IMG/VR virus record: IMGVR_UViG_2695420523_000015
DNA length: 13,112 nucleotides
Reading direction: 5' to 3' (one strand)
DNA from: a virus
Taxonomy: Duplodnaviria > Heunggongvirae > Uroviricota > Caudoviricetes
Shown here: piece by piece, positions 1 through 3,000 of the stretch
How the letters are laid out: each line of letters opens with the position of its first letter
Position numbering within the stretch: position 1 is the stretch's first letter
Program-made: the position numbers

Positions 1-3000
1 GAACGCGAGGCATCGTCTTAACGAGGCACCGAGGCGTCGCATTCTTCAGATGGTTCAACCCTTAAGTTAGCGCTTATGGGTATTCTCCCCCAGCACTAAA
101 CCTGATCCGACAGCAGGAGTTTTCAATGAAACGTCCGAATATGCCCGTACAGGGGCAGGGCTTCATTCAGCCTGAAATCAGCCAGAACGATATATTGATT
201 CGCCACAAAGCAGAGTCGCGTATTGATTCCCGCGTTATTTCTGAGCGAGCAGGAATACAACACGAAAGTATCATTGCGACGATTAAATCTCATCAATCCA
301 GATTGCGCGAGCTTGGCTCACTGCCTCGCCAGTCAGTCAAGGAATTAACCTATTTGAAATCGGGAAAATCTGGCCGCAAGCGCGGTCGTCCTGAAATTAG
401 TTATTTGCTGAATGAGCTACAGCTTGACTATCTGTTACGCGTTATCCGTGGGCGTGACGCAGAACGTATCAACCAGTTCAAGCTGGATGTTACGAAGGCA
501 TTCGCGAAGCATCGCGCCGCTGAACCAGTCCGTCGCGAATATCTGCCAGGCTATCACGAAAGCCGTGACGGGCTTAAAGCACTGGGCGCAGAACGTCACC
601 ATTACATCAACCTTGCCCGCACTGAAAATCGCTTCGCTGGGCTGGCTGTAGGCGAGCGTCAGAGCGCGGGAGAGCAACAGTTAGGCTTACTGATAGTCAT
701 GCAGAAAATCGAGCAGGCAGCATTTAACGAGGCGATACAGAACGGCATGACACCGACCGAAGCGGTGCGGGAAGTTGCTCGCCGCATGGAGACGTTCGCC
801 AGCCTGATGACGTCAGCGCCGTCTCTGGGGGTGAATCATGCGTAATTATGATTTCGCCGCAATTATTCCGGTATCACCTGGCATTATTGGCAGATATGAA
901 ACGGGCGTTGTCAGCGCACGCGCACTGCATAAAGCGCTCGGTGTAGGCCGTGATTTCACCACCTGGATTAAAGGGCGTATTGAGGAATACGGATTTAAAA
1001 AAGGTGTGGATTTTGAGGCTGTAGAAAATTTGTACTTTGATTCCCAGAAACGGGGGAGCCAAAGTGTAAATATTGAACAGTTTGATTCTGGCTGGCACGT
1101 CGCCTGGGAGAACGTGAACATGCCTGACATCCGCAACGCTGCCGCCCTGTACATCGATACTGCGGATAAGTTCGCACAGGTGAGCATCAACCATGCTGAT
1201 TACATGCGCCATATCGTGAGCCATTTCGCCGCTGAGCGCATGAAACACGTTAAGCATTATCAGAAGGAGGCTTTATCAAATTATCGCGCTGGTGGCCCTG
1301 TACGGCGTGAATATCCGCATGATGCAGGAATGGCAGGCAAAACAAAGGCGACCACGAAAGGGTCGCCAGTGGAGATAAAGGAAATCAAGCGCATCACCAA
1401 CTATGCCATGAGTGTAGCTGGTGGACAAGGCTATCAGCCAGGCGGTCGGTTTTTAGTGGCTTTTAACCGCCGTGGGTATTTCTCGACAAAAGCCTCAAGG
1501 GCAAATCGTGTTGGCCTGGTGAGTGGCAGTGGATTAAGTAACAACCTCCTTTGCCGTTGTGCTTTTTCGCGCTGTCGCTCAAGTATGGATAATGCGATTT
1601 CCTGTAGTTCTTCATTTGTCATTGTCTGTACCCGTAAAGCGGTGCGCTGTAGTACCTCATATCACAGCGCAGGTATTTTTTATGGTTGTAATTTGCGTGA
1701 TGATTCAGGTTGCTTTGCGACACACTGCATAAACATAAATAACGTGATGTTATTATGTGCTTTCAAAGAAAACGCAGGTATTTTTCGCACAAACTTTTCT
1801 CGCAACACATCCGACCACTTAAGCAAAAAAGCGGCATATACTGAAGCTATCCCTTATAAAACGGGGATCGGGCGTAGGAACCCGTTTAACTGTAAGGCGA
1901 TAAATGACGCCAGAAGCGTCTTTTTTTCTGCCAGCGCTTTACGCCATATCAATGGCGTTGTGTATTGTGCGTACTCGTGCACCATCCAGTCATTTCACGA
2001 GTTGCATTTTGCACAGCGCCACCAGCAAACAATGGTGATGCTGGCGGGGCTACCGAAAGGTAGGCCGGAGTCCTTACAGTCCGGTATTCCTACCCCCGCC
2101 AGTGTCACCGCCCATTGTGAGCGTAGGAACTCCTGCGGTGACGTTATTCATCACTGTAAGGAGGCTGCCAACATGGCTACTACCCCTACCCTCGTACATT
2201 CTCAGACTGCCTTTATCTGGCGCTTTATCATCTTTGGCGCGTCAGAATCCCAAATCATCCACGTAACCGCCTGGACGGAACGCGAAGCGCGTAACCGTTG
2301 CCCGTCAGGTTGCGTTGCTGTATTCGCCGCCCGTATCCGTCAGGAGGCATCACATGGATAAAAACATGTTGATCGCCTCTTCTTTCGGGCTGTATGATGC
2401 CGAAGTCGCCCACATGGCGACCGGGTTTAGCAGCCTGAATCAGATAGCGGACAGCCGCTTACATTCCGATATGCGGTTTTTTTGTGTCCGTAAGCCTACC
2501 CATACCCGCATTATGGCGGGGCGTAACGGGGGAGCCTTTGCGCTCGCTGGTTCCTATCTGGCCAGTCTGCTAACCCCGTTACGTCTCGCCACCATGTTTA
2601 GCAGCGTAGTAGCGAGACTCCTTAATCAACAGATAGGAGCCTTTCACATGGCTGTATCCGCACGCACATCTGATTTTTGTCGCCCGTATCCGTCAGGAGG
2701 TGACTCATGCTTAAAACCTTCCGCGTCTTTTCCCGTGCTGTTAACAAGCGCGGCTATACCGTTGGCATCACGCAGAACGTGAAGGCCGAAAACGTCCAGG
2801 CTGCAATCAGCACAGTAATTAACAAATCAGCTAAAGCCGGTTTATCCGGCGTAATTATCCACGCAGTGACATGTATTCAGGATGAGGAGTAATTCATGTG
2901 TGATTTTTCCGATATGACTGTTGATGAAGCAGCAAAAAGCGCAATGCAGGCAGAACTTATTTGTTCTCTGATGATGGGTAACACAGGTGAAATGACTGAG

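Follow-up and report, generated by a model that had tools for sequence, protein, structure and literature searches.

The interval 2323-2714 of IMG/VR record IMGVR_UViG_2695420523_000015, a 13,112-nt stretch of Caudoviricetes DNA (hereafter the window), holds a complete second C4 antisense-RNA module with its own specificity, in which the start of a second Icd-like gene (icd#2) lies at 2648. We consider it probable that this interval is the second of two tandem RNA-immunity modules of the P4/P1 type in an Escherichia coli satellite-like island, that a 20-mer repeated exactly in the window is the gene joint of each module, and that icd#2 has lost 104 nt. A sequence-only reading of the same DNA had drawn attention to the 20-mer and had regarded the interval as a decayed tandem duplicate of the Icd-like gene, with the repeated sequence under selection as nucleotides rather than as protein. 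The features of module 2 and of its neighbours are listed below; icd#1 is the Icd-like gene of module 1, ORF stands for open reading frame, and SD for Shine-Dalgarno sequence.

2328-2347, plus strand: 20-mer copy 1, comprising the ARIRQE codons of icd#1 and the SD AGGAGG of the next ORF
2354-2782, plus strand: Eta2-like ORF, whose ATG overlaps the icd#1 stop; it passes isrK-like leader #2, C4#2 and the icd#2 start, and ends inside orf61
2369-2398, plus strand: promoter-like TTGATC-18-TATGAT, a consensus match and putative promoter
2405-2483, plus strand: isrK/seqA-like leader #2 (RF01394, 35.4 bits, below the gathering score of 50, E = 1e-4; c4-a1b1, 29.7 bits)
2509-2596, plus strand: C4/CI-type antisense RNA #2 (Rfam RF01695, 72.9 bits against a gathering score of 45, full length)
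2598-2638, plus strand: downstream targets of C4#2, a2 TTAGCAG (2598-2604) and b2 CAGATAGGA (2630-2638), exact complements
2648-2714, plus strand: icd#2 remnant, with ATG 2648, a single CCGCACGC at 2658-2665 as the deletion junction, and out-of-frame C-terminal codons at 2676-2714 (alignment with the related locus L001)
2681-2700, plus strand: 20-mer copy 2, comprising the former A-R-I-R-Q-E codons of icd#2 and the SD for orf61
2707-2892, plus strand: orf61, hypothetical protein (WP_000920685.1), whose ATG overlaps the icd#2 stop (ATGCTTAA)

C4 targets were identified by a search for exact complements; RNAduplex applied to whole C4 and target segments was dropped, as it returned long, meaningless duplexes and ignored intramolecular structure. 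The tail of C4#2 is complementary to TTAGCAG at 2427-2433 in leader #2 (a1) and at 2598-2604 (a2), and its loop is complementary to CAGATAG(GA), found at 2441-2447 in the leader (b1, CAGATAG) and at 2630-2638 (b2). The b2 site overlaps the SD TAGGAG that precedes ATG 2648. This is the start that the sequence-only reading had likened to that of the Icd-like gene, and the likeness is real: GGAG (2636-2639), ATG (2648-2650) and GCT (2651-2653) resemble the AAGGAGG...ATGGCT of icd#1 (2158-2178). Exact complements of 7-10 nt lie on both sides of each C4 in the window and are specific to their own unit, and in relatives the C4 loops and their targets covary, with at least 7 different b specificities. 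The promoter-like sequence is situated just upstream of the start of leader #2, inside the Eta2 ORF. At the other end of the module, orf61 is the first gene 3′ of the immunity array, and beyond it lie small ORFs and then the primase gene (3518-5341); orf61, orf69 and orf63 are without a Pfam match, and the D5/primase protein comes next.

The corresponding features of module 1 (1849-2361) and its long ORF are as follows.

838-2361, plus strand: Eta-like long ORF of module 1, with an AntA N-domain, then Phage_ASH, then Icd#1 (ORF list, Pfam, NF033153)
1849-1926, plus strand: isrK/seqA-like leader #1 (Rfam RF01394, 50.0 bits)
2028-2115, plus strand: C4/CI-type antisense RNA #1 (Rfam RF01695, 70.3 bits against a gathering score of 45, full length)
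2123-2162, plus strand: downstream targets of C4#1, a2 GTAGGAA (2123-2129) and b2 ACTGTAAGGA (2153-2162), exactly complementary to the C4#1 loop and tail
2173-2361, plus strand: icd#1, 62-aa Icd-like protein (NF033153 phage_ICD_like, 59.8 bits against a cutoff of 25)

The score of leader #1 is exactly the RF01394 gathering threshold (50), and a terminator scan placed an intrinsic terminator at 1906-1920 plus a T run. GTAGGAA, the complement of the C4#1 tail, occurs in the leader at 1874-1880 (a1) as well as at 2123-2129, and the complement of the loop, ACTGTAAGG(A), at 1889-1897 (b1, ACTGTAAGG) and at 2153-2162, where b2 overlaps the icd#1 SD AAGGAGG. NF033153, with which Icd#1 was scored, is a 48-position domain with a curated cutoff of 25 bits, and the icd#1 counterpart in L001 is annotated as Icd-like. 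The start codon of the long ORF overlaps the end of Rha, the gene that precedes it (126-845; ATGCGTAA at 838-845), and the frame stays open across isrK-like leader #1 and C4#1 into icd#1, with AntA at aa 25-68, Phage_ASH at aa 334-455 and the NF033153 match at aa 459-502. The Pfam Phage_ASH match (PF10554, 69.8 bits) maps to nt ~1837-2203, which is the isrK-like/C4 RNA region. As a separate observation, the C4#2 loop (2545-2566, GGTTCCTA) is complementary to the a1 site of module 1 (TAGGAACC, 1875-1882) over 8 nt and to its a2 site (2124-2130) over 7 nt; cross-talk between the modules is possible, as is a chance match arising from anti-SD-like sequence.

The 20-mer CGCCCGTATCCGTCAGGAGG is present twice in the window (2328-2347 and 2681-2700), within the last Icd-like codons as the sequence-only reading had stated, and a scan tolerating up to 3 mismatches returned just these two matches, both exact. 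In 200 dinucleotide-preserving shuffles the mean number of occurrences was 0.01, and none of the 200 reached 2. Both copies are enclosed in a 41-nt repeat (2323-2363 and 2676-2716) that is 80% identical. Each consists of the last Icd-like codons, A-R-I-R-Q-E, together with an SD, and at both joints the SD AGGAGG is followed after 6 nt by an ATG overlapping the icd stop (ATGGATAA at 2354-2361; ATGCTTAA at 2707-2714). Copy 1 closes icd#1 (2173-2361), whose protein ends in FAARIRQEASHG before the stop codon. Copy 2 reads FVARIRQEVTHA followed by a stop (2676-2714, stop 2712-2714) and, again as first described, its frame is shut by a TAG (2634-2636) 25 codons upstream. The 20-mer is thus the conserved end of an Icd-like gene carrying the ribosome-binding site for the next one, and is ordinary in kind. 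The earlier proposal of a ribosome-loading site agrees with this arrangement, in which the SD and the start overlapping the stop would serve the next ORF.

To follow the fate of icd#2 we relied on related loci (L numbers), of which the closest, L001 from E. coli STEC2018-553, shares 99.4% identity with the window over 1800-2900 and encodes an intact second Icd. In the alignment the window lacks 104 nt that in L001 sit between two 8-nt direct repeats of CCGCACGC, and a single CCGCACGC copy (2658-2665) is left. As 104 equals 34 x 3 + 2, the loss shifts the frame of icd#2. The intact Icd#2 of L001 is 56 aa long (MAVSARPYFVWRFMQCLTGSIAIFTVTAATEREARARLPHAHLIFVARIRQEVTHA) and scores 47.4 bits against NF033153 within an annotated 154-aa ORF; an intact second Icd-like gene is found in L001-L004 and more relatives. 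The ORF at 2354-2779 of the window has no NF033153 match, the domain of the second copy being incomplete, and the closed frame at 2637-2714 holds just positions 43-62 of a custom Icd hidden Markov model (HMM). Upstream of the junction, window 2362-2657 is identical to the intact L001 allele save for one base (window 2403). Downstream, window 2658-3000 is 100% identical to L090, a relative with an intact icd, and the deletion must therefore be recent. A 40-nt junction probe found a full match in 11 of 5,426 complete E. coli genomes, and its first 28 nt alone, a left flank also present in the intact allele, matched in 156 further genomes. The deletion allele was seen in two different array contexts. 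STEC2018-553 itself carries the intact allele in one island (L001) and the deletion allele in another (L088; NZ_CP075665.1 2563230-2569325), where a three-unit array ends in a unit with the same 104-nt deletion.

These alignments indicate that the decay of icd#2 is a single clean deletion between 8-nt repeats, not gradual drift. The idea of a decayed tandem duplicate thus holds insofar as the interval contains the remnant of a second Icd-like gene, but that remnant reflects one clean loss of 104 nt, and accretion of modules is a likelier origin than local duplication. Rescue of icd#2 by a single-base frameshift was considered and rejected, as dropping one T from the T5 run at 2674-2678 yields just a 21-aa ORF (MAVSARTSDFVARIRQEVTHA); full restoration requires the 104 nt present in relatives. 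The deletion removed the Icd#2 core and put the Icd C-terminal codons out of frame. Translation from 2354 or 2648 would then continue to 2782 inside orf61, passing over the stop-start overlap at 2707-2714 without yielding an Icd#2 domain. The C4#2 RNA and its four target sites are untouched by the deletion.

Modules 1 and 2 are ~49% identical overall, with the WRF motif (13 nt) and the joint as their longest shared runs, and the type-2 icd forms the sole module in L090. On these two grounds we rejected a recent in-situ duplication and regard the array as more likely the product of module accretion than of local duplication. At least five classes of downstream gene (MPDM.., MINL.., MCNK../MHNK.., MHKIP.., MSQEI..) stand behind both icd types, always via an overlapping start, and the common form of the tandem joint was present in at least 106 of the 5,426 E. 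coli genomes. In L088 the joint of the middle module is chimeric inside the 20-mer, with a type-2 upstream half and a downstream half of the copy-1 type. Part of the identity of the 20-mer probably stems from exchange at the joint, by recombination or conversion.

Variation at the icd 3′ end was examined in 105 ends from 88 loci, 58 of them distinct (the Icd-alignment scan drew 80 loci from viral contigs and just 3 from genome contigs). The family-wide core of the joint reads GCC CGT ATT CGT CAG GRG G. Among 75 distinct genes it has ATT in 69 and ATC in 6; further variants are CGT/CGC (64/11), GCC/GCT/GCA, CGT/CGA and GAG/GGG/GGA. The CGA variant replaces CGT inside the 20-mer in copy 2 of L001, so that a relative with an intact second Icd-like gene carries ordinary synonymous variation at this very site, the outcome that the sequence-only reading had named as one that would refute it. 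Synonymous entropy of the ARIRQ codons is 0.34, 0.10, 0.40, 0.60 and 0 bits, and is equally low at other conserved motifs, such as the two Phe codons of FxWRF and ERE; the SD constrains the CAG GAG G of the core. Between the 20-mer and the C4 loop and tail segments tested, no complementary stretch reached 7 nt, and no shared hairpin was seen across 30 diverse joints. At copy 1 a hairpin spanning 2342-2381 occludes the SD and ATG (71-nt fold, -26 kcal/mol, z = -4.0). A conserved hairpin of this kind at the joint was rejected, as the copy-1 structure occurs only in the window/L001/L088 lineage.

Why, then, should the two copies be exactly identical? The sequence-only reading had answered that the nucleotides are selected independently of the protein, with the 20-mer acting as a target of C4 or another small RNA or as a structured element. 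Exact identity over 20 nt in units that are otherwise ~49% identical speaks in its favor, as do the low ARIRQ entropy of 0-0.6 bits and the unchanged state of copy 2 although it is out of frame. However, a recent deletion with flanks 100% identical to the intact allele makes the last of these uninformative about selection, the entropy is matched at the FxWRF Phe codons and ERE, ATT/ATC, CGT/CGC, GCC/GCT/GCG and GAG/GGG all vary over the 58 distinct ends, and the closest relative, L001, has CGA for CGT within the 20-mer. Taken with the lack of complements to the tested C4 segments and of a hairpin common to the 30 joints, the one at copy 1 being lineage-specific, these data largely refute the RNA-target proposal, and we consider it highly improbable. 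A different answer is that the exact identity in the window comes mainly from recombination or gene conversion between the joints, and not from purifying selection acting on each copy independently. Both copies share the minority ATC (6 of 75 distinct genes) and GAG, most relatives having ATT; both L002 copies share ATT and GGG; the chimeric middle joint of L088 is consistent with a crossover within the 20-mer; and every downstream gene class occurs after both icd types. Yet the single module of L090 already has the copy-2 sequence with ATC and GAG, and that state need not have come from conversion. The copies also differ within some tandem loci (GGG versus GAG in L011 and L035, CGT versus CGA in L001), and 20 nt of identity is short for RecA-dependent exchange. 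As the main source of the identity, conversion seems to us somewhat unlikely; it is a contributing factor rather than an alternative function. The identity of the 20-mer is best explained, and sufficiently so, by conservation of the Icd motif, SD constraint on CAG GAG G, and recombination or gene conversion at a mosaic boundary acting jointly.

The copy 1 joint opens onto a reading frame that runs through the RNA genes of module 2. In L001-L004, PGAP annotates a 465-nt "Icd-like" coding sequence that extends from the ATG overlapping the icd#1 stop, across the isrK-like element and C4#2, to the icd#2 stop, and in 12 distinct tandem loci the Eta2 ORF is 462-468 nt long and ends at the icd#2 stop. 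From its start to the icd#2 domain (~280 nt) this frame has 0 in-frame stops in the 12 loci, versus 4-8 in each other frame. Among 9 ORFs, variable sites in the first 98 Eta2 codons are distributed 45:46:40 over the codon positions, with no third-position bias, and in the icd part 13:17:30. Compensated frameshifts in L035 and L088 alter the Eta2 peptide and leave the frame open. This pattern argues that translation through the module is conserved and the Eta2 peptide is not, and likewise for module 1. In the window the Eta2 frame is open, but the deletion has shifted it off the Icd C-terminus. A consequence for annotation is that "Ash family" and 154-aa or 380-aa "Icd-like" proteins consist in large part of translated RNA-gene sequence. 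Partial Icd domains (HMM positions 2-42 or 4-27) were also observed in frame upstream of C4 within Eta-like ORFs of L013, L029 (~aa 236-281 of the long ORF), L019, L020, L023 and others. These embedded domains seem to be remnants of earlier modules fused into the next ORF, which would imply repeated growth and decay of arrays.

A close parallel in architecture is the immunity region of the satellite phage P4, which comprises PLE, seqA, the cI/CI RNA, seqC and kil nested in eta, with epsilon after them. On the minus strand of P4 (L089), an open frame from 8821 to 8168 contains an isrK match (8692-8615) and a C4 match (8507-8420) and ends with the 65-aa Kil (MATTLTPSH...); the kil 3′ end, GGTGGAGGTGTCCCGTGCGTAA, has the form GGAGG-N6-GTG, with the GTG of epsilon overlapping the kil stop. 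It is known that CI of P4 is located inside eta, that Kil is a truncated Eta, and that Eta translation from the upstream promoter prevents termination (PMC10111431). Shared with P4 are a C4-family RNA that follows an isrK/seqA-like element, a small gene (in P4 Kil, with its MATT..TP start) encoding the C-terminal part of a longer ORF that remains open across the RNA, a GGAGG-N6-start codon overlapping the stop of the small gene, and a primase operon downstream. The promoter-like site internal to Eta2 has its counterpart in PLE, internal to P4 eta. Unlike P4, there are two tandem modules of different specificity, the second Eta-like ORF begins at the first icd stop, the small protein is NF033153 Icd-like, the second icd has the 104-nt deletion, and the downstream genes are others.

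In the immI region of P1/P7 (c4, icd, ant1/ant2), the a′ and b′ elements of C4 pair with a1/b1 upstream and a2/b2 downstream, with b2 over the icd ribosome-binding site. The same layout is seen here, where both the C4 and the NF033153 Icd models match. Translation of icd in P1 is coupled to downstream expression, as reportedly worked out by Citron & Schuster (1990) and in later work. The window differs from immI in having no ant gene 3′ of icd, an AntA domain instead standing upstream in the Eta-like ORF; in the nesting of icd within that ORF; in its tandem modules; and in being a primase-bearing island of satellite type, not a plasmid prophage. The third comparison is with isrK-orf45-anrP of Salmonella Gifsy-1. 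The Rfam isrK model matches both leaders, and in Gifsy-1 too the stop of a small upstream ORF overlaps the next start; stop-start translational coupling of orf45 to anrP has been shown experimentally there, and IsrK is a structural homolog of the P4 SeqA RNA (PMC4825925). In Gifsy-1, however, IsrK is a trans-activator of orf45 translation, whereas we read the leader here as an a1/b1 (seqA) decoy or target of the C4 repressor, and leader #2 is below the isrK gathering score. A tblastn search of Icd#1 against phage records gave one weak match, to neither P1 nor P4.

In our interpretation each module has a leader with a1 and b1, a C4/CI antisense RNA, and a2 and b2 sites, b2 covering the SD of a small icd/kil-like gene. 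This gene is nested at the 3′ end of a longer Eta-like ORF that stays open across the RNA, and its last codons, A-R-I-R-Q-E/G, hold the SD for a following ORF that begins with an ATG overlapping the icd stop. If the locus works as P4 eta/kil/CI and P1 c4/icd do, each C4 would block translation of its own icd by pairing at b2, and the untranslated RNA would then be terminated prematurely, termination in P4-type immunity being Rho-dependent and CI being processed out of the leader transcript; ribosomes arriving through the upstream stop-start joints would keep the transcript translated and allow read-through. The copy 1 joint would load or re-initiate ribosomes on the Eta2 ORF, read through module 2, and the copy 2 joint would do likewise for orf61 and the downstream replication genes. 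We infer these roles in termination, read-through and re-initiation from the systems compared above.

Several observations weigh against our interpretation of the locus. With 35.4 bits, isrK-like leader #2 falls short of the Rfam gathering score (50), and it has a weak terminator hairpin. The custom Icd HMM gave no match to P4 Kil and, for this reason, the equivalence of icd and kil is one of position and architecture. In a hand count, icd#1 and icd#2 were identical at 7 of 7 conserved degenerate codons of the 3′ end, versus 8 of 14 elsewhere; this is somewhat above what protein and SD constraint predict, and the modest excess may reflect an extra homogenizing force or a role at the nucleotide level, for example in Rho loading at the C-rich joint. 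The promoter, RNA processing, Rho dependence and re-initiation are argued from homology. One could go further and take module 2 for a dead relic, with the deletion marking a decaying pseudogene array that has no remaining function. Truncated and frameshifted icd#2, the subthreshold leader with its weak terminator, and the flagging of such copies as pseudogenes by PGAP speak for this. But C4#2 scores as high as C4#1 and all four of its cognate targets are perfect, the only difference from the intact L001 allele over 2362-2657 is base 2403, the deletion allele occurs in 11 genomes and two array contexts, and an ORF is still open across the module. We therefore judge a dead relic to be unlikely.

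The tandem locus varies on a known system and does not amount to a new kind. It shows that P4-type RNA immunity modules occur two or three in tandem, each unit with a different antisense specificity, and the units appear to be coupled translationally by ORFs whose only selected property is to remain open. In the literature searched, a search that was incomplete, we found no description of a tandem, translationally chained C4/Icd arrangement. As a tentative extension, which we hold as a possibility falling short of an even chance, tandem C4-icd modules chained by stop-start joints may constitute a multi-specificity immunity array in satellites resembling P4 and the phage-inducible chromosomal islands (PICI). 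Such an array would provide several immunity RNAs and place the replication operon behind several locks, the icd 3′ joint would act as a homology linker for gain, swap and loss of cassettes, and the allele with the 104-nt deletion would represent a detoxified module that is maintained on account of its RNA.

Elsewhere in the window, three tandem 57-nt copies lie at 7235-7418 (spacing 62-65 nt, 67-84% identical), and AAAAAGTGCGCAAAAAA(C/G)TGCGCA motifs are repeated at 8631-8868. Both sets of repeats are situated among PerC-family regulator genes and neither has an Rfam match. A cluster of inverted and direct repeats of the GGTGAACA type at 5343-5587 directly follows the primase gene (end 5341) and could represent an iteron-containing origin of replication. 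At its two edges (1-80 and 13021-13112) the window has the two different ends of an IS4-like element of the IS421 family, with a perfect inverted repeat of 25 nt at 56-80 and 13021-13045. Both of these ends adjoin GGGGGAGAAT(A/C)CCC-like sites, and the same island is found in L090 without these insertions.

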